From the NCBI GenBank assembly GCA_024710585.1, contig JANJUM010000097.1, positions 2,097 to 66,096 of the forward strand: 64,000 nt of DNA. Direction: 5' to 3'. The stretch comes from Desulforhopalus sp. (lineage in GTDB: Bacteria > Desulfobacterota > Desulfobulbia > Desulfobulbales > Desulfocapsaceae). The position numbers and the translations under genes were made by a program. The notes beneath the pieces are model-generated. The model saw only the letters and a list, made by a program, of their open reading frames with translations, made no database searches and had not been told where the DNA came from. Of the stretch, positions 1,617 to 32,050 are shown in pieces (the stretch's first letter is position 1; every line of letters starts with the position of its first letter).

Positions 1617-3030
1617 GCATCGATCCTTGCTGTGGATTCATGATCAGCTCGGCGGCGAGCTTGGCGGTGGCGGTCATGAGGTCTTCCGGGACTCTCTGGC
1701 CATTGGCGAAAAATGACAGCGGGCTGGGGTTTTGTATCTGAACGTTGAGAACTGCCCCGAGGGTGGCGCATTCGTCGATCTTGGTATAGATGGTATGAGT
1801 GATGCCCAAGGGGCGGAAGCGCTCGATGGCGTCGAGCAGCTCCTGCTCGCGGGTGGTGGCGGAGAGCACCAGATGCTTGTCGATGTTCTGCTGCGCCGGG
1901 AAGAAGAGGCACAGCTCCTCGATGGACATGCTGTCGCGCGGGCTGCGCCCGGCGGTGTCGATGAGGATCAGCTCCTTGTCGCGGTGGCGCTCCAGGGCCT
2001 GCTGCAGCTGCTCCGGGGTGATGACCACCTCCACCGGCAGGTCCATGATTTCGCCGTAGACTTTGAGCTGCTCCACCGCGGCGATGCGATAGGTGTCGAT
2101 GGTGATCATCGCCACTGAGCGCGAGTGCCTGCCGAGGTAGGAGGCGGCGATCTTGGCCAGGGTGGTGGTCTTGCCGACCCCTGTGGGGCCGACCAGGGCG
2201 ATGCGCCGTGGCCCGGCCTGGCTGGCGGAGAAGGGCGGGTCGACCTGGAAGAGGTCACGGATGGTGTCCTTGATGGCGGCGACGATGACTTCCTCGCTGC
2301 CCAGCTCGCGTTCGGTAAGGCTCTCGCGGAGAAAGCCGGCGATGGTTCGCGCCGTCTCGACGTTGACGCCCCGCTCGACGAGGAGCGACAGGGGTCGGTC
2401 GCCATGGATGGCGGCGTTGTGATAGCGGGCGCCGTTTTCCCCGCTGCGCACCGACAGCTGGCGCGTCGCAGGGGCCGGGCGGGCGGCCTCCTGCTCGCCT
2501 ATCAGGGCGATGCGCCCGGCGAGGCTCTTGACCAGGTCCTTGAGCTCGTTGACTTCGTTCTGCAGGTCCGGCTCCGGCTTGACGGGGGAGCTGTCAGCGC
2601 TCTTCTGCTGTTGCGACGGGGTATCCAGAGGGGCGGAGCGGCCAGCCTGGCCGCTTTCCGCCGACATGCGTCCCGCCGGGCTGTAGCCGTTGAAGAAGAG
2701 GCCCTTGCCACCAGGCTCGTCGAGGGAATCGTCGACCACCGAGCGCAGCGAAGATGTCGACGCTGCCCCGCCTTGCTCCTGCCTCCGGCCATTATTGCCA
2801 TGACGTTCGCCGAAAGGTGCGGCGGAGGCCGGCTGGCGCTGCTCGGCCTTTTTATCGGCATAAGGCGTGTCGATGGCGGCGGTGATTTCCAGCATCGGCT
2901 TGCCGAGGAGGCCGAGCTTGCCGGCACGCACCGTCCTGGTGGAGAGAATGAGGGCGTCGGGGCCGAGCTCCTTCTTGACCATCTTCAGCCCTGAGGCCAT
3001 GTCCGTTGCTTCGAAGACTCTAACTTGCAT
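1609..3030 (-). CDS. flhF: Flagellar SRP-type GTPase FlhF
   Basis: GPTGVGKTTT, DTYRIAAVEQL, DTAGR and TKID motifs; N-terminal VFEATDMASGLKMVKKELG; canonical flhA-flhF-flhG-fliA order. Confidence 0.95.
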   Translation of the reverse strand: MQVRVFEATDMASGLKMVKKELGPDALILSTRTVRAGKLGLLGKPMLEITAAIDTPYADKKAEQRQPASAAPFGERHGNNGRRQEQGGAASTSSLRSVVDDSLDEPGGKGLFFNGYSPAGRMSAESGQAGRSAPLDTPSQQQKSADSSPVKPEPDLQNEVNELKDLVKSLAGRIALIGEQEAARPAPATRQLSVRSGENGARYHNAAIHGDRPLSLLVERGVNVETARTIAGFLRESLTERELGSEEVIVAAIKDTIRDLFQVDPPFSASQAGPRRIALVGPTGVGKTTTLAKIAASYLGRHSRSVAMITIDTYRIAAVEQLKVYGEIMDLPVEVVITPEQLQQALERHRDKELILIDTAGRSPRDSMSIEELCLFFPAQQNIDKHLVLSATTREQELLDAIERFRPLGITHTIYTKIDECATLGAVLNVQIQNPSPLSFFANGQRVPEDLMTATAKLAAELIMNPQQGSMHD

Positions 3031-5119
3031 CGAGGGTCACCGTGCCGAGGGAGCGGATTTTCAGGTTGGGCACCACTTCGTTATGGGAAATGATCGCCAG
3101 GGCCGGGTAATAGCGTTCAGTGAGGCTGCGCACGTAGGGGCGGATCTGCGGTGCGCTGAGCAGCACCGGGCGGCTGCCACCCTCGAAAAGGGGGATGCAC
3201 CTGCCGATGGAATCGAGGATGCGCTGGGCGATGATCGGGTCGATGGCGAGGTAGCTGCCGGTCTCCTTATGCTGAATGGAGCCGCGGATGGCCTCCTCTG
3301 CCGGCCGCGCCAGGGTGATGACCGGGATGACGCCGTTGACGGCCAGATCGGAGCTGATGGTGCGCGCCAGGGCGTGGCGCACGTACTCGGTGAGCACGTC
3401 AGTATCGTGGGTGGCGGCGGCCCAGTCGGCCATGGTCTCGAGGATGGTGCGCAGGTCGCGGATGGAGACGCCCTCCTTGAGCAGGTTCTGCAGCACGCGC
3501 ATGATGGTGCCCAGGGAGAGCACGTTGGGCACCAGTTCCTCGACCAGCTTGGGATAGTGCTTGGCGAGGTTGTCGAGCAGGGCCTGGACTTCCTGGCGGC
3601 CGATGAGCTCGTGGCTGTGCTGCTTGATGATCTCGCTGATATGGGTGGCCATGACGGTGGTGCAGTCGACCACGGTGTAGCCGGCCATCTGCGCGCGGTC
3701 CTTCTTGTCGGAGGTGATCCAGATGGCGGGCAGGCCGAAAGCCGGCTCGACGGTAGCGATACCGCGGATGGTCTCGGTGACCAGGCCGGGGTCCATGGCC
3801 ATGTAATGGCCGGGCATCATCTCCGCCGAGGCCACCCTGACCCCTTTGAGGGAGAAGGTGTACTGGTTGGGGTTGAGCTGCAGGTTGTCGCGGATGTGCA
3901 CCGGCGGAACGATGAAGCCATTGTTCATGGCGAACTGTTTTCTGATCGACTGGATGCGGTTGAGCAGTTCGCCGTCCTGGGCGGCGTCGACGAAGGGGAT
4001 CAGCCCGTAGCCGACCTCGAGTTGCAGCATGTCGACATGGAGCATCTCCTCGTAGTTCTCCTCGCGTTTGGCGGGGGCCTGGGCCGGCTTCTCCTCCACC
4101 TCCTCCACTTCCTCGGCCTTGCGTTTCTTGTCGAGATGGAAGGCGAGAAAGGCCATCGACATGGCAAGCAGCATGAACGGCACGAAGGGCAGGCCGGGGA
4201 TGATGGCGAAGGCGACGAGAATCGCCGCCACCACCCAGATGGCCACCGTGCTCGAGGTGAACTGCTTCTGCAGGTCGCTGCCGAAATCTTTTTAGCCGGT
4301 GCTGCGGGTGACGAGGAGGCCGGCGGCGGTGGAGATGATCAGGGCGGGAATCTGTCCGACCAGGCCGTCGCCGACGGTGAGGATGGTATAGTTGGCGGCG
4401 GCGTCGGCCATGGCCATGTCTTTCTGCACCACGCCGATGATGAAGCCCGCACCGACGTTGATCAGGGTGATGATGATGCCGGCGATGGCATCGCCCTTGA
4501 CGAACTTCGAGGCACCGTCCATGGCGCCGTGGAAGTTGGCCTCCTTGGCGATGTTCTCCCGGCGGCTGCGCGCCTCGGCCTCGTTGATGAGGCCGGCGTT
4601 GAGGTCGGCGTCGATGGCCATCTGCTTGCCGGGCATGGCGTCGAGGGTGAAGCGCGCCGCGACCTCGGCGACCCTGCCGGCACCCTTGGTGATGACCATG
4701 AAATTGATGATCACCAGAATGACGAAGATCACCACCCCGACCACATAGTTGCCGCCGACGACGAACTGCCCGAAGGCCTGGATGACGTGGCCGGCCGCCG
4801 CCGGACCTTCGTCGCCGCGGAGGAGGATGAGGCGCGTCGAGGCGACGTTCAGCGACAGCCGGAACATGGTGGTGACCAGCAGCAGCGAGGGGAAGATGGA
4901 GAAGTCGGTGGCCTTGGCGGTATAGAGGCTGAGGATGAGGATGAGCAGGGCGACGGTGATGCTCAGGGTAAGGAAGAGATCAAGCACCAGCGGCGGCATG
5001 GGAATGATCATCATCATCAGGATGGCGACCAGGCCAAAGGCGGCCATTACATCGCTGCGGCCAAGCAGCTGCTTGTAATCGTAGGTAGCCAGGGCGTTCT
5101 GGATGGTGGTCAGTTCCAT
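3020..5119 (-). pseudogene. flhA: Flagellar export gate protein FlhA interrupted by one in-frame TAA at 4292-4294
   Basis: ORFs 4292-5119 (TM part with the FHIPEP signature [23 protein letters not shown]) and 3020-4246 (last TM helices plus cytoplasmic domain) are in the same frame. The junction reads ACC GGC TAA AAA GAT TTC GGC = T-G-*-K-D-F-G. Read through, the frame is 699 codons plus stop, a normal FlhA length. Confidence 0.9.
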
Positions 5120-8603: not shown

Positions 8604-8969
8604 TCAGCCGAGGTTCTCGATGCGGTCGGAGGTGCTGATGACGTCGGTGAGACGGATGCCGAACTTGTCACCGACGAGCACCGCTTCACCCCTGGCAATG
8701 AGGCGGGAGTTGACGTAGAGATCGAGGGGCTCGCCGGCGAGCTTGTCGAGCTCGATGACATAGCCCTCGCCCATTTTCAGCAGGTCGCGGAGGAGGATCT
8801 TGCTGCGCCCGACTTCCACCGAAATCTGCAGGGGGATATCGTAGAGGAAGTCGAGGCCGCGGCCGTCGGCGTCAGCGATCCCGGCGGATCTCGGGCTGCC
8901 GGGGGAGTCGTTCTGCAGCAGTTCCTTGATTTCTTCCGGGGCCGGTCGACTGTTTCCTGGATTGGCCAT
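8604..8969 (-). CDS. fliN: Flagellar switch protein FliN
   Basis: LDFLYDIPLQISVEVG...ELDKLAGEPLDLYVNSRLIARGEAV SpoA domain. Confidence 0.96.
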   Translation of the reverse strand: MANPGNSRPAPEEIKELLQNDSPGSPRSAGIADADGRGLDFLYDIPLQISVEVGRSKILLRDLLKMGEGYVIELDKLAGEPLDLYVNSRLIARGEAVLVGDKFGIRLTDVISTSDRIENLG

Positions 8970-8984: not shown

Positions 8985-9965
8985 TCATTGGTGGACGGAG
9001 ACGAGGCTGATCGCCTTTTTGCCGTTATTATGGCCGGGGATGGCCGAGAATTTCCAGCGGTCCTCGACCAGCACCTTGAGCGGCGCATTGGGGTTGTATT
9101 CGAGGGGGAGAATGTCTCCCTCCTTGAGGGCGAGAATCTGCTTGATGGTCAGATCGATGGTGCCGGAAAGAGCGGTGACTGAGGCTGCCACCTCCCTGAC
9201 CTCCTCTTCGAGGACGCTCTGCCAGGAGGACTTGAGCAGCGTGGGGATGTTGAGCAGCTCGCGCAATGCGTCACGCAGTGGTTCGAGGGTGGCGAAGGGG
9301 AAGAGCAGGTGCAGTTCCCCGCTATGGTCGCCGACCTTGACGTTGAAGGTGCCGACGATGACCTCCGATTCCGGCTCGACGATGGACACCAGGCGGGCGT
9401 TGTTCTCGAGCTTGACCAGCGAGGCGCGCATCTCCAGCAGCTGCGCGAAGGCCTTATTGAGGTCGCCGCAGACGTCGTTGAGGATGGCCTTGAGGATATT
9501 GAGCTCCAGGGGAGTGAGCTTGCGGTCGAGGTGCAGGGGCTGCAACTCCGAAGAGGCGCCAAGCATGATCTCCAGCACCGAGAAGGAGAGCACCGGGTCG
9601 AGGATGATCATCGCCCCGTATTTGAGGGGGTTGAGGTCGAGTATGCCGATGGCCCCGGGATTGCTCTTGTCGGCCATGAACTTCTGGAACTCGTAGCTCT
9701 CGAGGGCGGTGCGGGTGATGGTGAAGGAGCGCTGCAGCTGGTTGCTGATCGAGGTGGCGTAGGTGCGGCAGAAGCTGTCGAGGATAATGTCGAAGTTGGG
9801 GATGCGGAACTGGGTGGTGTCCGGCCTGGTCAGCTGAAAGAGGTTGGCCGGGGTGCACTGAAGGTTTGGTTCGCTGCGCCGCTCGTCGACGTCGAGGGGC
9901 ACGCGCCCCTCGCGGATGGCCTGGAGCAGGTCGGCGATCTCCGCCTTGCTGAGGATCGGTTCCAT
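8985..9965 (-). CDS. fliM: Flagellar switch protein FliM
   Basis: N-terminal CheY-binding LSKAEIADLL motif, CheC-like middle domain, SpoA C-terminus. Confidence 0.93.
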   Translation of the reverse strand: MEPILSKAEIADLLQAIREGRVPLDVDERRSEPNLQCTPANLFQLTRPDTTQFRIPNFDIILDSFCRTYATSISNQLQRSFTITRTALESYEFQKFMADKSNPGAIGILDLNPLKYGAMIILDPVLSFSVLEIMLGASSELQPLHLDRKLTPLELNILKAILNDVCGDLNKAFAQLLEMRASLVKLENNARLVSIVEPESEVIVGTFNVKVGDHSGELHLLFPFATLEPLRDALRELLNIPTLLKSSWQSVLEEEVREVAASVTALSGTIDLTIKQILALKEGDILPLEYNPNAPLKVLVEDRWKFSAIPGHNNGKKAISLVSVHQ

Positions 9966-23492: not shown

Positions 23493-25907
23493 CTAGCGAC
23501 GTTTCTTCAGTGTAGCGAATTGCAATTCCCGTTCCGCAAATTTCTTCCACAGGGGGTTCTTGCCTGTTTCGACAATTTTGCTGAAGAAACTTAGCGCTTC
23601 TTGCTCATTTCCACGGCCACGCTCGATTTCGGCGCGGCGAAAGAGAGACTGTTCGTAGAAGGGGTGGGACTCGCCGATGTCGGCGTAGAGCGGTTCAGCC
23701 CTGTCGATGGCACCGGTGCGGAAGAGCGATTCGGCGAGCATGAAGCGCTCGCGGTCGCCGAGAGGAGATTGGTGCAGGCGCAGGGTCAGCAGGACGTTCT
23801 CGGCCCGCTGATAGTCTTCCAGGCGGAAGTGGATGGCGGCGGCTACGGCGAGCATGTCGACGTCTTCGGGAAGCGGATCAGGCAGCAGGCGCAGGGCCTC
23901 CTGCAGGCGGCCGTCGGCGGCGAGGGCGCGCAGACGGAGGAGGAGAATGGCCTGGCGATCCTCGCCTTCAGGGTAATTGTAGAGATACTGGGAGCCATAG
24001 TCTTCCACCAGGCTGTAGCTTCCCTGATCGAAAGCCGCCGAGATCATGGGGAGATAATGGCGCTCGCGGATTTCCGGCCCGGAGACCTCGATGAGGTAGA
24101 GATAGAGTTTCTGGGCCTCGTCAAAGAGGCCGATGCGGTGATAGGCTTGGGCGATATCGCCGAGAAATTTCTTGTCGATCCAGTTTTTCTGGAAGAATTC
24201 GCGATGTTGCCTGGCGAGCACCAGGGCTTCGACATACTTGCCGCCTTCGGCGAGCCGCTTGATCTCCTGGGGCAGCAGGTCGATGAGCAGGGCCTGTGCC
24301 GAGATTCTGACATCCCCGGTGAGAAACTCGCGCAGCAGGGTCTGCAGCAGTTCTATGGCCTCCGCCTCCTTTCCGAGCCGGGAATGCAGCAGAGCCTGCT
24401 TGAACATGGCCTCTTCACGTATCGCTCTATTGGGTGCCTGTGTGGCGATCTCGGTGTATCTCTCCAGGGCGCTGCGGGCGGAGTCGGGGCTGCCGAGGTA
24501 GGAGAGGTCGGTCTTCTTCATGGCGGCACGCAGACCGGCTTCGCCATCGGGGTAGGCGGACTCGAGTTGGGCGAAGCCGGCTTGCAGGGCCGCCCTGTCC
24601 TCGCCACCTTTGTTGAGGCGCGCCATAAGCTTGCGATAGGATGCCAGACCGAGTTGTTCCTTGTCTACGAGCAGCGCCTCGAGTCTTTGGTAGCAGTCCG
24701 CCGCCTCCCCATAGACTTTCTGCTGATAGAGGGCGCTGCAATAGCCGTTGAGCGAGTAAGGCATGGTGGCAAGAGGGGCCGCATCGCGCTGCAGGCGATA
24801 GGCGGCGAAGGCCTTGATCGGCTGGTTTATGGCATGCCAGTAGTCGGCATGGCGGATACGCACGATCTGCCGCAGTTCTTCGGGAAGGGCGATGTCGTCA
24901 CGGAGGAGCAGTTCGTTGAGGCGCTTGTGCTTGCCGGAGGCGAGCGCAGCGTCGACCTGGCCGACATAGACATGGGCGGCGATGGGGCTGCCTTTGCCCA
25001 TGGTCTTTTCAAGGGCCTGAAACTCGTATTCGGCGATGTTGGCGTCCTCGTGACGGGCCTTGAGGAAGATGAGCAGGTAATTGGCGTAACTCCCGAGAAG
25101 TTCGTCGGGATAGCCCTCTTTGAGCAGATACAGCTGTCGATAGGCACCGGGGAAGTCGCCGGCGTGCAGCAGGGCCTCGCCAAGGCTGAGGGCGAGGATT
25201 TTCTGGGCCTCTATCTCAGCAGCCTGGGGCAGTTTGGTGAGGATCGCCTCGCCGAGTTGAACCCAGGCTCCCTTGGCGGCCAGTTCCATGGTCTCGGCGG
25301 GCAAGAGCGAGAGGTTGCCGTCGCGGCCAGGGGGCAGGAAGCTGGCGATGGGGAAGGGCGGCGGCGTGAAGCGCACCGGAACTTCGAGCGCCAGCGGCGC
25401 CTCGTAGCTGGAGAAAAAGGATCGCCAATCGGCCCTGTAGGGGCTCTGCAAGGTGGGGTTGGTATAGTCCACCGGGACGCGGTCGAGTTCCTGCACCCCC
25501 TTGAGGCGTTCGGCCAGTTCCTCGTAGGTTTTGCTGTATTCATTGCCGAGGAGGATTTCGCAGACGATCTTGTCGTCGCGATTCTTGGTGAGGGAGAATC
25601 GTTGTGGCTTGTAGCGGAAAAAGAGGGAAAGGATGAGCTCGTCACCCTCACGTCGTGGCAAAATTTTGACAATGTCTGCGTCGGGGGGAAAGAGCTCGAG
25701 CTTTTCTTCGGCGCTGGCTCCGGAAAAGATGAGGTCGAGACGGCGGTTGCTGGCAAACGTCGAGAACTTCGGCGGCTCGTCGAAGGTCAAATAGAGCTGC
25801 ACCACGTCGCGGGTATCGAGACGCGATACCTTGAGCAGGCGAGATGCCTCGACGCTGTGCGGCAGGAGGAGCACGAGGAGCATGGAGAGTATTTGCAGCA
25901 GCTTCAT
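23493..25907 (-). CDS. Large exported TPR-repeat protein with an N-terminal AMIN-like beta domain; heads the flgB operon
   Basis: Signal peptide MKLLQILSMLLVLLLPHSVEA; beta-rich VQLYLTFDEPPKF...LDLIF segment; many TPR-like helices (e.g. LAESLFRTGAIDRAEPLY, ALSFFSKIVE). Confidence 0.8.
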   Translation of the reverse strand: MKLLQILSMLLVLLLPHSVEASRLLKVSRLDTRDVVQLYLTFDEPPKFSTFASNRRLDLIFSGASAEEKLELFPPDADIVKILPRREGDELILSLFFRYKPQRFSLTKNRDDKIVCEILLGNEYSKTYEELAERLKGVQELDRVPVDYTNPTLQSPYRADWRSFFSSYEAPLALEVPVRFTPPPFPIASFLPPGRDGNLSLLPAETMELAAKGAWVQLGEAILTKLPQAAEIEAQKILALSLGEALLHAGDFPGAYRQLYLLKEGYPDELLGSYANYLLIFLKARHEDANIAEYEFQALEKTMGKGSPIAAHVYVGQVDAALASGKHKRLNELLLRDDIALPEELRQIVRIRHADYWHAINQPIKAFAAYRLQRDAAPLATMPYSLNGYCSALYQQKVYGEAADCYQRLEALLVDKEQLGLASYRKLMARLNKGGEDRAALQAGFAQLESAYPDGEAGLRAAMKKTDLSYLGSPDSARSALERYTEIATQAPNRAIREEAMFKQALLHSRLGKEAEAIELLQTLLREFLTGDVRISAQALLIDLLPQEIKRLAEGGKYVEALVLARQHREFFQKNWIDKKFLGDIAQAYHRIGLFDEAQKLYLYLIEVSGPEIRERHYLPMISAAFDQGSYSLVEDYGSQYLYNYPEGEDRQAILLLRLRALAADGRLQEALRLLPDPLPEDVDMLAVAAAIHFRLEDYQRAENVLLTLRLHQSPLGDRERFMLAESLFRTGAIDRAEPLYADIGESHPFYEQSLFRRAEIERGRGNEQEALSFFSKIVETGKNPLWKKFAERELQFATLKKRR
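23521..23536 (-). promoter_or_regulatory. Candidate internal sigma54 promoter for flgB, inside the 3' end of the TPR gene
   Basis: Minus strand CGGAACGGGAATTGCA with exact spacing, about 50 nt upstream of the flgB start. Confidence 0.4.
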
Positions 25908-26356: not shown

Positions 26357-26728
26357 ATGGGAAAAAACGTACTGCTGGTAGATGACTCGAGCACCATGAG
26401 AAAAATCATCGGACGTTCCCTGCGCCAGGCGGGGATCGACTTCGAAAACATCTACGAGGCCTCCGATGGTCTCGAGGCCCTCGAGGTCCTCGAAAGCAAG
26501 AAAGTCGACATCGTCCTCAGCGACATCAACATGCCCAATATGGACGGCATCTCCTTCCTGCGCGAGAAGGCCGCCCGTCCCGGCATCAAGGACATCCCGG
26601 TGCTGATGATCTCCACCGAGACCGGCGACGACATCATCGGCGAGGCCAAGTCCCTCGGCGCCCTGGGCTCGATCAAAAAGCCCTTTACCCCCGACAAGGT
26701 CAACGAGGTCCTCGGGCCACTGCTGTAG
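26357..26728 (+). CDS. cheY: Single-domain response regulator CheY
   Basis: LLVDDS, phosphoacceptor LSDINMP, MIST and KKPF motifs intact. Start re-set to ATG 26357 behind GAGGAG. Confidence 0.88.
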   Translation: MGKNVLLVDDSSTMRKIIGRSLRQAGIDFENIYEASDGLEALEVLESKKVDIVLSDINMPNMDGISFLREKAARPGIKDIPVLMISTETGDDIIGEAKSLGALGSIKKPFTPDKVNEVLGPLL

Positions 26729-26806: not shown

Positions 26807-27256
26807 GTGCGTGAGAGAATAATCGAATCCGCCAAGGAAATTTTCTCGTCGATGCTGATGATGGAGATCGTCGAGGTGGAGAGTGACGAGAGCGGGGCAT
26901 TGCCCCTCGTGGACAGCATCTCGGGGGTTATCGGCCTCGCCGGGACCCATAAGGGGGTACTGGCCATACACCTGCCCCATGTGGTGGCCATAGCCGTCAC
27001 CTCAAGCTTCCTCGGCATGGACGTCGAGGAGATGAACAGCGATGTCGAGGACGCCGTGGGCGAGCTGGCCAATATGCTCGGCGGCAACGTCAAGTCGATC
27101 CTCTCGGAGAAGGGCAGGGATATAAACCTTTCTCTGCCGACCACCATTTCCGGTCGCCAGTACGATTACCAGTCGAACAAGGAAGCGGATAGAACATTTA
27201 TCAGGTTTCAGTGCGAACCTGGCGAATTTGCGGTGGAACTGCTGCTTGAAAAATAG
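26807..27256 (+). CDS. cheX: Chemotaxis phosphatase CheX (copy 1)
   Basis: ISGVIGLAG and DAVGELANMLGG (E-x2-N active-site motif), LSLPTTISG. Confidence 0.88.
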   Translation: MRERIIESAKEIFSSMLMMEIVEVESDESGALPLVDSISGVIGLAGTHKGVLAIHLPHVVAIAVTSSFLGMDVEEMNSDVEDAVGELANMLGGNVKSILSEKGRDINLSLPTTISGRQYDYQSNKEADRTFIRFQCEPGEFAVELLLEK

Positions 27257-27348
27257 CCGTCGCACGGTTTCGCAGGAATGTTCGCACAAAGGCGGCTTCA
27301 CTCACCCTGAACCGCCTTTTCTTTTGTCAATGTCGAGGGATGCGTCTC

Positions 27349-27819
27349 ATGATAGATCAGGCAGCGGTCGGCGACGAAATCGTCAAAGGAGCCAGGGATG
27401 TCTTTTCAACCATGCTCATGGTCGAACTGGAGAGTGAGGAGACGCTGCTCAACCAGCGCCTCGCCCTCCACTCCAATCTTTCATCGATGATAGGTCTCGG
27501 CGGGGGGATCCGCGGGGTGCTCGCCGTGCACTGCCCGGCATCGGTGGCCAAGGCCATCACCTCGACCTTTCTCGGCATGGACGTCGAGGAACTCGACGAA
27601 GACGTCAAAGACGCCATCGGCGAGATCGCCAACATGGTCGCCGGCAATCTCAAGGTCTCTCTGGCCGAGAACGGCGTGGCCATCGAACTCGCCATCCCTA
27701 CCTCGGTGGTCGGCGAATCCTTCAATATCACCGGTGTTGCCAAGGCGCAGAGGGTGGTCGTACCGCTGCGCATGAATGGCGAACTCTTCTCTATTGAACT
27801 GATGTACGTGGTCAACTGA
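27349..27819 (+). CDS. cheX: Chemotaxis phosphatase CheX (copy 2)
   Basis: LSSMIGLGG and DAIGEIANMVAG (E-x2-N), LAIPTSVVG. ATG 27349 preferred for RBS spacing (track start 27340). Confidence 0.88.
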   Translation: MIDQAAVGDEIVKGARDVFSTMLMVELESEETLLNQRLALHSNLSSMIGLGGGIRGVLAVHCPASVAKAITSTFLGMDVEELDEDVKDAIGEIANMVAGNLKVSLAENGVAIELAIPTSVVGESFNITGVAKAQRVVVPLRMNGELFSIELMYVVN

Positions 27820-28047: not shown

Positions 28048-28074
28048 TAACCTCCCTGTCACCACTGCCGATAT
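28048..28074 (+). promoter_or_regulatory. Candidate sigma28 (FliA) promoter upstream of the triple-CheC gene
   Basis: TAAC-N15-GCCGATAT compared with consensus TAAA-N15-GCCGATAA/T. Confidence 0.65.
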
Positions 28075-28129
28075 GAGAGACATCCTTTCACTTTCCACAC
28101 CATAACCCGGGGTGTTTCGCCAGCAGGCC

Positions 28130-30577
28130 ATGGACCAGCGTAAACGCATAGACAAGATACTCGACGCCGTCGAGAAGAAGATCCAGAACGAAGTCGCCAC
28201 CCTTCTTGGCAGCGACTTCTCCGTCATTGGCGGTGAACGAGGGCTGTTTTCCAAGGAAGAGGTCTTCTCCCGCCTCCAGGGCAAGCAGGTGCTCGCCCAC
28301 CTCGATGTCGCCGGTGACCACGTCGGCAAAGGGGCCATCCTCGTCGCCATCAAAGACGCCATCCGCCTTGGCGGGACGCTGATCATGCTCCCCGACCTCG
28401 AACTGCAGGAGGTGGTCGGTCGGGAGGAGTATCGTGAGGAACTGGAAGACTCTTATGGCGAGATCGCCAATATCATAGCCGGCTCGGTGACCAAAGCCTT
28501 CGAGGAGATGTATCCCGGGGCTTGCCGTTTCATCCGCAAAGAGCAGGAGGTGGTTGTCCCGACGAAGGTGGATGCGGAGAGCGACGCGCCCATCGTCAGT
28601 CAGCGCTACTACCAGAGCCTGTTTTCCATGCTCCTCGACGGCAAGCAGCTGGGCGATCTCGTCCTGCTCATGCCGGCCGCCTCCTTCGACCTCGACGATG
28701 CCGCCCCGCCCAAAGCCGAGGCGGATGACACGGCAGCGGCCAAAGAAAGCCCCGCCCCCGCCCCGGCAGCCGCACCGGGCAGTGAAACTCCAGCCTCCGC
28801 GACCGACACCCGGCCGGCCGACAAGCCCAAAGTCGATTTCGACAAGCAGAAGAAACGTATCGACAAGCTGCTCGCCGAGTGCGAGAAGCGCCTGGCGGTG
28901 GAGATCGGCGCCCTGCTCAGCGCCGAGGTCGGTCTCGAAAAAGTCGAAAACCGACTCCTCGACAAGGAGAAATTCTTCTCCGAGGTCGCCAGTGGCAAAC
29001 AGATCATTGCCGACATGAATGTCGCTGGCGAAGGGCAGGAGGCCTGCTATTTCTCCATCGGCATCAAAGACGCGATCCACCTCGGCGGCATTCTCATCAT
29101 GCTGCCGCCGACGGAACTGACCAGCGTCATCGGCGAAGAAGATTTCAGCGACGACACCCAGGATGCTTATGGCGAGGTGGCCAATATCGTCTCCGGCGTC
29201 TATACCGCGGTGTTCGAGGAGCAGTATACGGCGAAGTTGCGCTTCGTCAAAAAGGGCATCCGCCAGGTGGTGCCCGCCAAGGTGGATGTTCATTCGCCGG
29301 AACCGTTCGCCGACGGTGCCTACTACTGCCAGACCATGCAGCTGATCATCACCGGCAAGCCCTCCGGCGAGGTGCATATGCTCTTTCCGGCCGGACTGCT
29401 GCAGCTCGAGCGCGAAATTTCCGCCCCTGTGGTGGGAAAAAAGGCCGAGCCTGCCCCCTCTCCTGCACCCGAGGAGAAGAAGGCGGAGGCTCCCCCCGCT
29501 CCGCTTGCCGCGAGTCCAGCGCCAACGGGCAGGGCGCCTTCAGCGGACAAGGGTGCGGCGGAGAAACAGAAACGCCTGGTGGACAAGCTGCTCGCCGCCT
29601 GCCGCGATCAGGTTGCGGCGGAGGTGACGGCACTGCTTGGCACCGAGGTGACCCTCGGCGACCAGCGCAACCAGGTGATCACCAAGGAGTCGTTCTTTTT
29701 CGAGGAGGTCTCCGGCAAGCAGGTCATCAGCCACTTCGAGGTGGCAGGGGATGCCGAAGGCAAAAGTTATCTCGTCGTTGGGCTGCGCGACGCCATCCGC
29801 GTTGGCGGGGTGCTGATCATGCTCCCCAGCCAGGAGTTGGAGTCGGTGGTTGCCGACGAGGTTTTCGGGGAAGATACCGCAGACGCCTATGGCGAGATCG
29901 CCAATATCATCGCCGGGGTTTATACGGCGGTGTTCGAAGAGCAGTACTCCAAGCGCATCCGCTTCATCAAGAAGGAGGTCGAGCAGGTGGTGCCGATGAA
30001 AGTCGACATCGCCTCGAACAGCCCCTTCCCCGACGGTTCCTACTACCATTCCAGCTGCACCCTGGGCATCGGCGACCAGACCTACGGCAAGATCGGTCTC
30101 GTCTTTCCCCTCGACATCCTCGGCCTCGAGGGCCTGCTGGCCGCGGACGAGGGATATGTGATGGAGGATGCCGGCGGCGTCGAGCCGGTCGCAGCCCCCT
30201 TGGCACAGCATGGCAGCCTCGACATCCTCCTCGTCGGCGACGACGACACCGAAGCGATCAAGATCGCCGGAGTGCTCGAGGCCAGGGGCTATGTCGTCAA
30301 ACGCCTCTCCTTCAAGGACAACGTCCACAATTACCTGCCCGGCGAAATCAAGGCGGTATTCCTGGTCATGCGCGAGGTCAACGAGCAGGCCTTTGGCGCG
30401 GCCATCAAAATCAGCGCCGCCTGCCGGCTGCCACTGATTGCCGCCGGGCCGGGGTGGACACGGAGCAAGGTTATCAAGGCGGTGCGTTACGGGATTCGCG
30501 ACATCCTGCTGACGCCAGCTTCGGCCACGGATGTCGAGGAGAGCGTCGCCAACAACCTCCTCAAGCTGGCCGCGTGA
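28130..30577 (+). CDS. Multidomain protein: three tandem CheC/CheX-like domains plus a C-terminal degenerate receiver domain
   Basis: Three repeats of about 240 aa, each with D-[SA]-Y-G-E-[IV]-A-N-I (Glu codons at 28460, 29174, 29894), joined by Pro/Ala-rich linkers. The C-terminal REC fold has Val at the phosphoacceptor position (KAVFLVM) and Thr at the conserved Lys (LLTP). Start is ATG 28130 or GTG 28112. Confidence 0.8.
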   Translation: MDQRKRIDKILDAVEKKIQNEVATLLGSDFSVIGGERGLFSKEEVFSRLQGKQVLAHLDVAGDHVGKGAILVAIKDAIRLGGTLIMLPDLELQEVVGREEYREELEDSYGEIANIIAGSVTKAFEEMYPGACRFIRKEQEVVVPTKVDAESDAPIVSQRYYQSLFSMLLDGKQLGDLVLLMPAASFDLDDAAPPKAEADDTAAAKESPAPAPAAAPGSETPASATDTRPADKPKVDFDKQKKRIDKLLAECEKRLAVEIGALLSAEVGLEKVENRLLDKEKFFSEVASGKQIIADMNVAGEGQEACYFSIGIKDAIHLGGILIMLPPTELTSVIGEEDFSDDTQDAYGEVANIVSGVYTAVFEEQYTAKLRFVKKGIRQVVPAKVDVHSPEPFADGAYYCQTMQLIITGKPSGEVHMLFPAGLLQLEREISAPVVGKKAEPAPSPAPEEKKAEAPPAPLAASPAPTGRAPSADKGAAEKQKRLVDKLLAACRDQVAAEVTALLGTEVTLGDQRNQVITKESFFFEEVSGKQVISHFEVAGDAEGKSYLVVGLRDAIRVGGVLIMLPSQELESVVADEVFGEDTADAYGEIANIIAGVYTAVFEEQYSKRIRFIKKEVEQVVPMKVDIASNSPFPDGSYYHSSCTLGIGDQTYGKIGLVFPLDILGLEGLLAADEGYVMEDAGGVEPVAAPLAQHGSLDILLVGDDDTEAIKIAGVLEARGYVVKRLSFKDNVHNYLPGEIKAVFLVMREVNEQAFGAAIKISAACRLPLIAAGPGWTRSKVIKAVRYGIRDILLTPASATDVEESVANNLLKLAA

Positions 30578-30592
30578 GGGCCTGCCGCACTA

Positions 30593-32050
30593 TCAGTCCT
30601 TAAGCCACAGCCCGTCGATATCCTTTTTCTTGATCTTCTCCAGCAAGGTGGTGCGTTTGAGGTTGAGCAGACGCGCCGCCTCCTTCTTGTTGCCTTCGCT
30701 CAGTCGCAGCGCTTGCAGGATGAGACGTGTCTCGAAGTCGTTGATGACCTCGTTGAAGTCGATGCAGCCTTTGTCCCAGGCCAGGTCGAGAGAGGATGTG
30801 CCGGCGAACGGGGTGTCGCTTGCCGGGGGGGGATTGCCGGGCTCCGCGACATCTTCAGGGATGTCAAGGTCATGGAATTTCTCCGGAAGGTCGGCGAACT
30901 GCACCGTCTTGCCACTATAGAGCACGCTCATGTGCTGGATGAGATTCTCCAACTCGCGGACATTGCCGCGCCAGTGATAGTGGCGCAGGGCGGCCATGGC
31001 CCGAGGTGCGAAGAAAAAGGCCTCTCTGCCGCGCTGCAGGCAATACTTGTCGATGAAGTTGTCGACGAGAAGGGGGATGTCGTCGGCCCTCTGGCGCAGC
31101 GAGGGGATGTGCAGCGGAATGACGCTGAGGCGATAGTAGAGGTCCTCACGGAAGCTGCCTTCGCCAACGAGTTTTTCCAGGTCGCAGTGGGTTGCGGCGA
31201 GGATGCGCGTGTTTACCGGGATGGCCTTGTAGGCGCCCACCGGCTCGAATTCCTTCTCCTGCAGCACGCGCAGGAGCTTGGCCTGCAGCGAAGACTTCAT
31301 GTCGCCGATCTCGTCGAGAAACAGCGTGCCCTGATCGGCGTACTGGATACGGCCGATTTTGTTGGCGGCGGCGCCGGTGAAGGCGCCCTTGGTATAGCCG
31401 AAGAGTTCGCTCTCGAGGAGATCGTCGGGGATGGCGGCGCAGTTCACCGGGACGAAGTTTTTACCGCGCCTGCGGCTTTCGGCATGGATGGCCTTGGCGA
31501 CCATTTCCTTGCCGGTGCCCGATTCGCCACGAATGAGCACCGTGCTCTGGTCGTCTTCGGCGATGCGCTCGATCATGCTAAAGAGATTCTGCATGACCTC
31601 GGTGGCGCCCATCATGCCATGGAAGTCCTTCCGGTCGGCTGGCGATGAGGCCTGCAGCCGGTTCGCCACTGGCTGCAGGCGAGTGCAGACGCGTCGCAGG
31701 GCGGCCCGGGTTTCCACCGGGTCGATGGGTTTATGGACGAAAAAGAACAGGTCGAGAGAGAGTACATCCCTGATCAACTGCGGTCGGCCGGCGGGGATGA
31801 TCGGCAGGATGGCCAGTTCGGGGAAGCGCTGGCGCAGAGAGGCGAGCAACTGCAGGCTGTGCGGGGCGTCGGAGAGTTCGAGGTCGAGGAGAAGGACCTC
31901 CACCGCATTGCCGCCGAGTGCCGCCTGCAGTTCCTCGGGAGAGGAGGCGTGCAGCAGAGTGCAGTGGTAATGAGACCGCAAGGCCTCGGCATACCTCGCC
32001 AGGCCGGTTATTTCTCTGTCGGCAATAAGTATTGTCGGGGGTGCAGCCAT
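30593..32050 (-). CDS. Sigma54-dependent enhancer-binding protein, FleQ/FlrA-like (atypical REC-AAA+-HTH)
   Basis: GESGTGKE Walker A, GAFTGA, LFLDEIGD, WRGNVRELEN, Fis-type HTH ending LKRTTLLEKI; adjacent to the flagellar cluster. Confidence 0.9.
   Translation of the reverse strand: MAAPPTILIADREITGLARYAEALRSHYHCTLLHASSPEELQAALGGNAVEVLLLDLELSDAPHSLQLLASLRQRFPELAILPIIPAGRPQLIRDVLSLDLFFFVHKPIDPVETRAALRRVCTRLQPVANRLQASSPADRKDFHGMMGATEVMQNLFSMIERIAEDDQSTVLIRGESGTGKEMVAKAIHAESRRRGKNFVPVNCAAIPDDLLESELFGYTKGAFTGAAANKIGRIQYADQGTLFLDEIGDMKSSLQAKLLRVLQEKEFEPVGAYKAIPVNTRILAATHCDLEKLVGEGSFREDLYYRLSVIPLHIPSLRQRADDIPLLVDNFIDKYCLQRGREAFFFAPRAMAALRHYHWRGNVRELENLIQHMSVLYSGKTVQFADLPEKFHDLDIPEDVAEPGNPPPASDTPFAGTSSLDLAWDKGCIDFNEVINDFETRLILQALRLSEGNKKEAARLLNLKRTTLLEKIKKKDIDGLWLKD

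Follow-up and report, generated by a model that had tools for sequence, protein, structure and literature searches.

The gene of interest lies in an operon on the plus strand of the window, the whole 64,000-nt stretch of DNA analysed here, and encodes an 815-aa protein made up of three tandem CheC-like repeats followed by a pseudo-receiver (Table 1). The ATG at 28130 was preferred over the GTG at 28112 as the start codon, since orthologues share the same start Met (MxQQKRIDKIL). We found >611 full-length homologues, the closest of them 95% identical, which places the 815-aa architecture far beyond chance.

Table 1 Features of the operon and of the 815-aa protein, in window coordinates.
Feature	Position	Strand	Basis or remark
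FliM, with N-terminal ILSKAEIADLL	8985-9965	-	
cheY, 123 aa, first operon gene	26357..26728	+	Pfam Response_reg 88 bits
cheX-a, 149 aa, single-domain CheX	26807..27256	+	Pfam CheX 83.8 bits; conserved in operon
cheX-b, 159 aa, single-domain CheX	27340..27819	+	Pfam CheX 84.9 bits
Sigma-28 (FliA)-type promoter-like site, TAAC-N15-GCCGATAT	28048..28074	+	56 nt upstream of start codon
(CheC-like)x3-pseudo-receiver gene, stop codon included	28130..30577	+	ORF, translation; 815 aa
Repeat 1, residues 1-190, A-type (N-terminal) unit clade	28130..28699	+	AF2, Foldseek, unit tree
Active-site motif 1, D107-S-Y-G-E111-I-A-N114	28448..28471	+	D107, E111, N114 invariant in 71 orthologues
Linker 1, residues 191-235, Ala/Pro-rich, disordered	28700..28834	+	pLDDT <50 for 192-233
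Repeat 2, residues 236-426, CheC fold, 'B1' unit clade	28835..29407	+	AF2 model, unit tree
Active-site motif 2, D345-A-Y-G-E349-V-A-N352	29162..29185	+	D345, E349, N352 invariant in 71 orthologues
Linker 2, residues 427-472, Ala/Pro/Glu/Lys-rich, disordered	29408..29545	+	pLDDT <50 for 429-472
Repeat 3, residues 473-666, CheC fold, 'B-type' (last) unit	29546..30127	+	AF2 models, unit tree
Active-site motif 3, D585-A-Y-G-E589-I-A-N592	29882..29905	+	D585, E589, N592 invariant in 71 orthologues
Linker 3, residues 667-696, short helix then disorder	30128..30217	+	pLDDT <50 for 674-694
Pseudo-receiver, residues 697-815	30218..30574	+	AF2, Foldseek, profile vs PDB

Three DNA repeat families (D1, D3 and D6) occur in three copies each, spaced 714 and 720 nt apart, exactly as a previous sequence-only reading had it, and the protein carries three ~190-aa repeats with pairwise identities of 40/41/49% (repeat 2 shares 49% with repeat 3 and 40% with repeat 1). 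The repeat motifs listed in that reading are all present (IKDAIRLGGTLIMLP, IKDAIHLGGILIMLP and LRDAIRVGGVLIMLP), with two corrections: the third, LRDAIRVGGVLIMLP, opens with L and not I, and the N-terminal helix, (K/R)(K/R)xIDK(I/L)L, reads KRLVDKLL in repeat 3. Its Pro/Ala/Lys linkers were likewise recovered, linker 1 (composition A15 P9 K4 D4 T4) and linker 2 both being Ala- and Pro-rich and containing some Lys and Glu. Linker 3 showed pLDDT <50 in the two-domain AF2 model as well (residues 201-222 in the numbering of that model).

The full-length AF2 model contained four well-folded domains (mean pLDDT 85.6, with ~95 for each repeat), and the topology predicted for repeat 1 was alpha1-b1-b2-b3-alpha2-alpha3-alpha1'-b1'-b2'-b3'. 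The geometry between domains was left undefined by AF2 (pTM 0.38 at full length and 0.57 for repeat 3 plus the pseudo-receiver). Foldseek searches with the repeats returned the FliY middle domain 4hyn as the best match (E 3.4e-8, TM 0.73-0.76), together with CheC (2f9z/1xkr, E 3e-7 over ~200 aligned columns), the FliM middle domain (7dm9, TM 0.82) and CheX (1xko/3hzh); the Foldseek probability was 1.00 for 4hyn, 2f9z, 1xkr, 1xko and 3hzh. Each repeat is thus predicted to adopt the CheC/FliY/FliM-middle fold, the structural models agreeing with the CheC-like domains first proposed from sequence. In Pfam, CheX (PF13690) was the sole family matched by the whole protein (50.6 bits against a cut-off of 27), while single repeats scored 19-21 bits each, under the 27-bit cut-off, with alignments covering profile positions ~29-64 (5-62 for repeat 3). 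Neither FliM nor FliMN_C was matched in Pfam by the 815-aa protein, NCBIfam held no family for it (CheX_Thtogales gave no match), and a search of the full-length protein against PDB chain sequences returned a chance match to EutS only (E 0.5). Public assemblies yielded no record of an exactly identical protein.

Each repeat carries one candidate active site on helix alpha1' (DSYGEIANI, DAYGEVANI and DAYGEIANI), in agreement with the single site per repeat noted before and conforming to D-x3-E-x2-N. Across 600 units from 287 family proteins the Glu was retained in 596, the Asn in 575, the Asp in 591 and the downstream Pro in 550; among three-repeat proteins, 393/399 units retained Glu and Asn together. 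The Asn was absent from one or both units in a few lineages, e.g. G128 and G668, and catalysis is therefore not universally required. The Asn-to-Pro spacing in the repeats is 29 residues (N114 to P144 in repeat 1) owing to an 8-residue insertion, compared with the consensus D/S-x3-E-x2-N-x21/22-P, whereas the neighbouring cheX-a and cheX-b proteins have the canonical spacing of 21-22. In helix alpha1 the repeats read NEVATLLG, VEIGALLS and AEVTALLG, that is E-x2-T/A with the Asn absent.

The C-terminal domain was predicted by AF2 to be a (beta-alpha)5 receiver fold with helix alpha2 shrunk to one turn. Its Foldseek receiver matches were 4dad, 1dcf and 1nxp, with 4DAD the best (E 3.7e-4, TM 0.73), and a family profile of the domain searched against PDB matched the NtrC1 receiver (1.4e-7) and H. 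pylori CheY1 (1.6e-7). Receiver homology was visible only with this family profile, as Pfam gave nothing for the isolated domain, Response_reg included, even at E 10. An hhalign comparison of the profile with the operon CheY, the latter entered as a single sequence, gave a probability of 16%, too low to be informative on a CheY origin of the domain. The phospho-acceptor Asp is absent from the end of beta3 (AVFLV-M747), and the phospho-Asp of NtrC1 lands in an insertion relative to the pseudo-receiver profile. Beta4 ends in IAA-G773, with Ala/Gly instead of Thr87, and beta5 ends in LLT795-P796 where receivers have Lys-Pro. The missing phospho-acceptor Asp and conserved Lys had been read correctly from the sequence, M747 and T795 occupying those places in a receiver fold. 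The acidic pair D704/D705 is the only receiver active-site feature retained, and by these residues the pseudo-receiver should be incapable of phosphorylation. Among the three Geobacterales one-repeat forms examined, Lys-Pro was present in two and M-P in the third, and the Asp was absent in 3/3. The most conserved surface of the pseudo-receiver is the beta4-alpha4-beta5 region, where W776-T777 is invariant; a W-T after beta4 is specific to the family. The domain was found C-terminal to the last repeat in 133/133 three-repeat, 54/57 two-repeat and 71/87 one-repeat proteins, those without it being mostly truncated-looking (short, or ending soon past the last repeat). The 815-aa protein terminates in -LAA, and an -AA end is shared by 132/133 three-repeat proteins.

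The 815-aa protein belongs to an uncharacterised Desulfobacterota family, with one, two or three repeats plus the pseudo-receiver, in which repeat number has changed repeatedly. Geobacterales have one repeat, most Desulfobulbales two, and the host lineage and some others three; family lineages have diverged to ~25% identity. A tree of the individual units showed that the N-terminal unit has been duplicated independently at least six times; identity between sister units ranges over 57-93%, and some duplications are recent (93%). The host lineage differs in carrying a second B-type unit rather than an N-terminal-unit duplication: repeat 1 falls within the A clade (support 100/99) and the middle units of the host lineage form a clade of their own (98/99). 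An AU test rejected a single origin of middle units (p 8e-43), the tested group having been named after a first tree was viewed. Tree and test together speak against a single ancestral triplication, which we reject. Searches of Pfam, NCBIfam, PDB sequences and the literature revealed no characterised family with this architecture, and no description of tandem CheC/CheX domains or of a CheC-pseudo-receiver fusion was found in the literature searched; the earlier impression of an architecture unmatched among characterised proteins thus holds across these sources. That the protein is part of a one-, two- and three-repeat family with repeated duplications is an observation the sequence-only reading had not made.

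The operon layout cheY-cheX(-cheX)-(CheC)n-pREC is shared by the one-, two- and three-repeat lineages sampled. CheY was found at the same position, at 44-84% identity, in 13/13 context loci holding the operon's upstream genes, and most lineages with two or three repeats have cheX-b, a single cheX being all that is found in Geobacterales and G353; neither cheY nor cheX is kept upstream in G128 (L031). At the Tyr106 position the operon CheY carries Ser or Ala, and it may therefore not be a classical FliM-binding CheY. The order cheY-cheX-cheX-gene is conserved, with flgB-flgC-fliE-fliF-fliG-fliH-fliI next to it and cheA-W-B-R close by. The sigma-28-like site was the sole match in the 64-kb window, against a chance expectation of 0.22. 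Similar sites lie upstream of orthologues in G461, G475 and G353 (two further genera), while G634 has the CCGATA core only and most other loci checked were without one; no sigma-54 promoter was seen by eye in the 310-nt upstream gap. Neither CheZ nor a FliY-type CheC domain was found in the organism's own genome.

Within the order, the family is almost perfectly tied to one flagellar motor type. In a phylogenetic profile of 301 genomes of the order, 106 carried the family, all in families f1, f2 and f115. A low-scoring FliM type (~120-134 bits) was present in 105 of these 106 genomes, and the family occurred in 0/119 genomes with a high-scoring FliM. In family f1, the 9 genomes without FliM were exactly the 9 without the (CheC)n-pREC gene.

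From the architecture and predicted fold, the conserved motifs, the linkage to the operon and to flagellar genes, and the repeat dynamics, we consider that the 815-aa protein is probably a multivalent CheY-P phosphatase of the CheC/CheX/FliY (CXY) superfamily serving flagellar chemotaxis, and that the pseudo-receiver may be a docking or regulatory module. Points against this reading are the 29-residue Asn-to-Pro spacing, the CheX scores of single repeats below the cut-off, the loss of the Asn in a few lineages, the undefined interdomain geometry and the Ser or Ala in the operon CheY. The E-x2-N catalytic mechanism has been described for CheX (PMC12887009), and we infer from the retained motif that the repeats catalyse the same reaction. 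In the mechanism envisaged, the three CheC-fold domains, tethered by ~45-residue disordered Pro/Ala linkers, would each offer one catalytic helix alpha1' with D-x3-E-x2-N. If the CheX-CheY3 complex is a guide, the Glu and Asn of this helix would reach into the CheY-P active site and place the water needed for hydrolysis. More speculatively, the pseudo-receiver may keep the array of phosphatase domains at a place where CheY binds (the flagellar switch or the kinase) or, alternatively, may trap the CheY encoded in the operon. Phosphatase capacity would then depend on how many catalytic modules (1, 2 or 3) each anchor bears, a number that evolution may have tuned repeatedly.

A more specific version of this reading, which we put forward only tentatively and hold to be rather doubtful in its full form, is that the pseudo-receiver acts as a constitutive CheY decoy, by which one to three flexibly arrayed phosphatase modules are anchored at a CheY-binding site of a distinct flagellar motor lineage, namely the type with the low-scoring FliM and the PflA-like TPR protein. 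Protein level could in that case be set by ClpXP via the conserved C-terminal -LAA. If true, the family would provide a CheY-P sink located at the motor or the array, with a capacity that evolution tunes by module gain and loss. It would then represent a third independently evolved means of placing a CheY-P phosphatase, the other two being CheZ at CheA-short and FliY in the C-ring.

The pseudo-receiver might instead be an intramolecular pseudosubstrate that occupies a CheC-like site until a signal frees it, making the protein an auto-inhibited phosphatase. A CheY-like fold that lacks the phospho-acceptor and always lies C-terminal to the last repeat would suit this role, and the conserved beta4-alpha4 (GPGWTR) and beta5-alpha5 (TPA) loops flank the would-be active site, on the face that CheY shows to CheX. 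We nevertheless regard auto-inhibition as unlikely. It is weakly disfavoured by the two-domain AF2 model, in which the linker is disordered and the pseudo-receiver is not confidently docked on repeat 3 (pTM 0.57). Two or three sites are also more than a single pseudo-receiver can cover, although copy number has gone up repeatedly, and a phosphomimetic acidic residue is absent from the end of beta3.

Another possibility is a non-catalytic sponge or scaffold whose stoichiometric binding of CheY or CheY-P would buffer or concentrate it with no hydrolysis. Multivalency fits buffering, the Asn-to-Pro spacing is atypical, the catalytic Asn is gone from both units in G128, and the same operon already encodes two bona fide single-domain CheX proteins. 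A phosphatase is favoured over a sponge because of the near-universal retention of the catalytic Glu and Asn: their persistence despite such deep divergence of the family is typical of catalytic residues, whereas the non-catalytic relative FliM has lost them, and we judge a sponge to be very unlikely.

It is just as improbable that the protein is primarily a structural part of the motor, a FliM/FliY-like C-ring accessory of a particular motor type with catalysis secondary: the best fold matches do include FliY and FliM middle domains (TM 0.73-0.82), the gene in the sampled lineages lies directly beside the fliF/fliG operon and next to a PflA-like TPR gene, and it co-occurs strictly with the low-scoring FliM type, but the protein has no FliN/SpoA domain, N-terminal LSQxEIDALL peptide or FliM-type GGXG, its long disordered linkers are unlike ring subunits, its variable copy number fits poorly with a fixed ring stoichiometry, and the absence of a FliN domain together with the canonical FliM and FliN encoded in the window argues against a core C-ring subunit. 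Replacement of FliM or FliY by the 815-aa protein is ruled out by the presence of that FliM and FliN.

CheY-P phosphatases set the time resolution of chemotaxis, and their position in the cell shapes the CheY-P gradient. To our knowledge few arrangements have been characterised: CheZ at the receptor array, FliY in the C-ring, and the soluble CheC-CheD and CheX. The family described here would add a modular design, in which one to three CheC-fold modules on disordered tethers are fused to a non-phosphorylatable receiver, and which occurs only with a single type of flagellar gene cluster, in Desulfobacterota that reduce sulfate or metals. Its repeated independent duplications, some very recent, amount to a natural experiment on the selection of enzyme valency in signalling, and the one-, two- and three-module forms are ready-made constructs for this question. 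The assignment would also give a precise annotation to several hundred proteins currently labelled 'CheX', 'CheC' or 'hypothetical'.

The nearest single-site relatives compared were CheX proteins (Thermotoga maritima 1XKO; Borrelia burgdorferi CheX-CheY3 3HZH; Vibrio vulnificus 6VPW), with which the repeats share a single alpha1' site, D/S-x3-E-x2-N, and then a conserved Pro. CheX, however, is a ~150-aa stand-alone homodimer formed via a continuous beta-sheet, whereas the units here are ~190-aa, in tandem and fused to a pseudo-receiver. The units also have the full CheC/FliM topology of six strands and two long helices, with an extra ~28 residues after alpha1 and the 8-residue insertion before the Pro, and share only 22-24% identity with the neighbouring CheX proteins. 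Domain size and the pseudo-twofold alpha/beta topology are like those of CheC (T. maritima 1XKR/2F9Z; Bacillus subtilis). CheC has two active sites, on alpha1 and alpha1', whereas the repeats have that on alpha1' only, alpha1 carrying E-x2-T/A. CheC is activated by CheD via helix alpha2'; the repeats have no helix after beta3', and cheD is not at the locus (the two matching genes in the same genome lie away from it, on contigs C164 and C48).

FliY (T. maritima 4HYN; B. subtilis), the best structural match to the repeats, is similar in concept, being a CheC-type phosphatase that a fused targeting domain brings to the place of CheY-P action. In FliY a single CheC-like domain bears two sites and is accompanied by a FliN (SpoA) domain at the C-terminus and a CheY-binding peptide at the N-terminus; the 815-aa protein lacks both of these additions, its N-terminus being helix alpha1 itself, and has the pseudo-receiver. 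The FliM middle domain (7DM9, 4GC8, 2HP7) has the same fold (TM up to 0.82), but FliM has no catalytic motif and bears a GGXG FliG-binding motif and a C-terminal FliN-like domain. For the pseudo-receiver, the N-terminal domain of CpaE/TadZ (4DAD, 4DN6) is likewise a receiver fold devoid of phospho-acceptor chemistry; no specific sequence relationship to it was detected, the family profile fitting NtrC1 and CheY about equally. The atypical receiver of TadZ has been implicated in polar localisation.

The ATG at position 28130 was taken as the start of the gene, rather than the GTG upstream at 28112, because orthologues start at the same methionine (MxQQKRIDKIL). In the encoded protein, residues 1-190, 236-426 and 473-666 (repeats R1, R2 and R3) align end to end, with pairwise identities of 40% (R1-R2), 41% (R1-R3) and 49% (R2-R3). 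Conserved DNA segments present in three copies (families D1, D3 and D6) bear out the spacing of 714 and 720 nt given by the sequence-only reading. The motifs quoted there were all found, with trivial deviations (the IKDAI motif of R3 opens with Leu and its N-terminal KRxxDK helix is longer by one residue), and both linkers between repeats are rich in Ala and Pro and contain some Lys and Glu, much as described.

Coordinates of the studied gene and of other features in the window
Feature	Position	Strand	Remarks
flhA	3020-5119	-	700-codon gene, intact except for one in-frame TAA
FliN	8604-8969	-	
FliM, canonical	8985-9965	-	N-terminal CheY-binding peptide ILSKAEIADLL
TPR protein	23493-25907	-	804 aa; heads flgB-fliI operon, divergent from cheY
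cheY	26357-26728	+	Ser at the usual aromatic Tyr106 position (GALG-S-IKKPF)
Sigma-28-type site	28048-28074		TAAC-N15-GCCGATAT; 56 nt upstream of start codon
Gene for studied protein	28130-30577	+	open frame, 815 codons
C-terminal -LAA	30566-30574		last three codons of the studied gene
Sigma-54 activator	30593-32050	-	receiver domain 27.8 bits, below Pfam cut-off of 30.2

A Pfam search with the whole protein returned only CheX (50.6 bits, cut-off 27); single repeats scored ~20 bits each, with little covered beyond the active-site helix, and neither NCBIfam nor the PDB sequences gave a match to the protein. The fold was modelled with AlphaFold2 on the basis of 71 orthologues (mean pLDDT 85.6). 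Four well-folded domains are separated by three disordered stretches (192-233, 429-472 and 674-694), and the pTM is only 0.38, so that the model resembles beads on a string. All three repeats share the topology alpha1-b1-b2-b3-alpha2-alpha3-alpha1'-b1'-b2'-b3'. Foldseek matched the repeats in the PDB to the middle domain of T. maritima FliY (4hyn, E 3e-8, TM 0.73-0.76), to CheC (2f9z, 1xkr) and to FliM middle domains (7dm9, TM 0.82), with the CheX entries 1xko, 3hm4 and 3hzh ranking lower. From this topology and these matches, the modelled repeats are full-size CheC/FliM-type domains and not the shorter CheX.

The repeats resemble CheX in carrying a single D-x3-E-x2-N site, located on alpha1'; at the equivalent place alpha1 reads E-x2-T/A. 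The distance from the Asn to the conserved downstream Pro is 29 residues, owing to an 8-residue insertion, compared with the usual 21-22; the canonical spacing is seen in the two single-domain CheX neighbours. Among 600 units of 287 proteins, the motif is kept almost throughout (Glu in 596, Asp in 591, Asn in 575 and Pro in 550), and Glu and Asn occur together in 393/399 units of three-unit proteins. All nine D/E/N positions are invariant across 71 close orthologues. The Asn is replaced in a few lineages (genomes G128 and G668 and some representative proteins), sometimes in both units.

AlphaFold2 predicts a (beta-alpha)5 fold for residues 697-815, in which alpha2 is very short. Pfam Response_reg did not match this domain. 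Foldseek recovered both atypical and ordinary receivers (CpaE-like 4dad, ETR1 1dcf, PleD, and MicA 1nxp at TM 0.87), and a profile built from 34 family members matched PDB receivers including NtrC1 (1.4e-7), H. pylori CheY1 (1.6e-7) and many further CheY entries. NtrC1's phospho-acceptor Asp lies within an insertion of the profile alignment. The strands end in AVFLV-M747 (beta3), IAA-G773 (beta4) and LLT795-P796 (beta5), and the acidic pair D704/D705 is the sole survivor of the receiver site residues. The earlier call of a pseudo-receiver was thus correct: the beta3 end, at M747, has no phospho-acceptor Asp, and judged from these residues the domain is not a possible phosphorylation target. 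The best-conserved stretch of the whole protein is found here, spanning beta4-alpha4-beta5 (PLIAAGPGWTRxKVIKAVKYGxxDILLTPA); W776 and T777 in it are invariant. The C-terminal -LAA resembles an ssrA-like ClpX recognition signal, and regulated proteolysis through this end is possible. An -AA ending was seen in 132/133 three-repeat members (94 with -LAA), 24/51 two-repeat and 12/62 one-repeat members.

Full-length homologues (815-860 aa) number more than 611; they come from Desulforhopalus, Desulfopila, Desulfocastanea and Desulfomarina among others and are annotated as 'CheX', 'CheC' or 'hypothetical'. A three-repeat profile searched against 1.84 billion representative proteins retrieved only 267 clusters, in three length classes with three (~800-860 aa), two (~570-660 aa) or one unit (~330-440 aa). 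The same pseudo-receiver terminates all members sampled from these classes. In the wider count it is present in 133/133 three-unit, 54/57 two-unit and 71/87 one-unit proteins; most members without it look truncated (short, or ending soon after the last repeat). At the level of whole genomes, three-unit proteins occur in the window's genus and, within its family, in some genomes of three more genera. Two-unit proteins occur in most of the remainder of this family and also in a second one of the order, and one-unit proteins come from further families of the phylum (Geobacter, Oryzomonas, Pelotalea, Trichlorobacter and other Geobacterales or Desulfuromonadales). In P0233 (657 aa) and P0226 (673 aa), only one standard unit stands before the pseudo-receiver, and ahead of this unit come an additional, much more divergent domain of ~200 aa and a long acidic linker.

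Maximum-likelihood trees of the units (quick and careful versions) split those of Desulfobulbales into an N-terminal A clade (support 100/99) and the B units preceding the pseudo-receiver. The order is A-B-B' in the window's lineage and A-A'-B, with sister A units, in at least six others. Identity between the two A units is 93% in genome G461, 85% in G634, 79% in protein P0112, 70% in G525/G547, 63% in P0124 and 57% in P0125; G475, a close relative of G461, has two units only. In two further families of the phylum, two-unit forms come from separate duplications of their own. A single origin of all middle units was rejected by the AU test (p 8e-43) for a group named after the first tree had been seen. 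As the trees and this test show separate duplications, unit copy number is evolutionarily labile and, on these phylogenies, repeatedly raised. If they are not assembly artefacts, the one-unit proteins nested within three-unit clades (P0183 and P0176) suggest losses.

Both in the window and in orthologues of 95%, 54% and 44% identity, the gene closes an operon of the order cheY (123 aa)-cheX-cheX-gene. This operon is divergent from the 800-aa TPR gene, which is followed by flgB-flgC-fliE-fliF-fliG-fliH-fliI, and convergent with the genes for the sigma-54 activator and for a cNMP-binding protein. A few kb beyond are cheR-cheB-cheW-cheA. In a BLAST comparison of the window's proteins with 13 flanking regions of one- and two-unit lineages, the gene was directly adjoined by cheY and by one or two cheX in 12, once in the order cheX-gene-cheY; the upstream genes are lost from G128. 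A homologue of the TPR gene lies inside 8/13 flanks, directly after the gene in most Geobacterales. The sigma-54 activator, possibly a FleQ/FlrA-type flagellar master regulator, adjoins the gene in all two- and three-repeat lineages checked and not in Geobacterales. The sigma-28-type site is the sole match within the window; similar sites precede the orthologues of three more genomes, which belong to two further genera, G634 has the CCGATA core only, and most other loci checked have none. Ser or Ala occupies the Tyr106 position in 11/12 operon CheY orthologues compared, from several families, and the most divergent (G068, 44% identical) reads NNLVKKPF; this CheY may be a distinct subtype with a different output contact. 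The in-frame TAA of flhA may be a genuine nonsense mutation, or else an error of sequencing or assembly. Elsewhere in the genome there are two more CheX-like genes and, on other contigs, two cheD genes; CheZ and a FliY-type CheC domain were not found in this genome. A second non-standard CheX fusion is encoded on its contig C194 (locus L037, 1633-2625, minus strand), a 330-aa protein in which ~200 residues without a Pfam match precede a weak CheX-like part (24.7 bits, below cut-off).

Both the studied protein and Pfam FliM were searched for in one set of 301 genomes of the order. The protein was found in 106, all in families f1, f2 and f115, and 105 of these encode FliM, always of a ~120-134-bit type; the other families (119 genomes) have FliM of ~175-197 bits and the protein in none. 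The nine FliM-less genomes of f1 are exactly its nine genomes without the protein, and in f2 both searches gave the identical 37 positives. This match therefore indicates that the gene was gained, kept and lost with one particular flagellar system. The two FliM types suggest two different flagellar systems in the order, of which only the ~120-134-bit one is linked to the gene family.

In CheC-type phosphatases, Glu and Asn of the long helix enter the active site of CheY, where they orient the hydrolytic water (PMC12887009). We read the units as CheY-P phosphatase sites because the fold is retained, D/E/N/P are near-universal, and the gene has a dedicated cheY as constant partner and depends on flagella. 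The insertion into CheY is also the picture given by the CheX-CheY3 structure 3HZH. Catalysis by the units is likely, and the studied protein would form a tethered array of three CheY-P phosphatase sites. The pseudo-receiver, being unphosphorylatable, obligatory in the family and very highly conserved over beta4-alpha4-beta5, points to a conserved protein-protein contact; we tentatively prefer that it docks at a CheY-binding site or captures CheY, even if this falls short of an even chance. Were it instead a pseudosubstrate auto-inhibiting the phosphatase, one decoy could not mask three sites, and AlphaFold2 of repeat 3 with the pseudo-receiver gave no confident packing (pTM 0.57). Of the functions first proposed, phosphatase is the one favoured, the motif being kept, and this conservation argues against a pure CheY-P sponge. 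A core C-ring role is disfavoured, since the protein lacks a FliN domain, canonical FliM and FliN are already encoded and copy number varies.

Two points stand out most: modules were duplicated repeatedly and independently, and the family is closely tied to a single motor lineage. The sequence-only reading had recognised no such architecture among characterised proteins, and we likewise found no counterpart in Pfam, NCBIfam, PDB sequences or the literature searched. The domains belong to already known superfamilies; what matches no characterised protein in these searches is their arrangement, in which full-size CheC-fold modules, each with one CheX-type site, are joined in one to three copies by disordered tethers to an obligatory pseudo-receiver.
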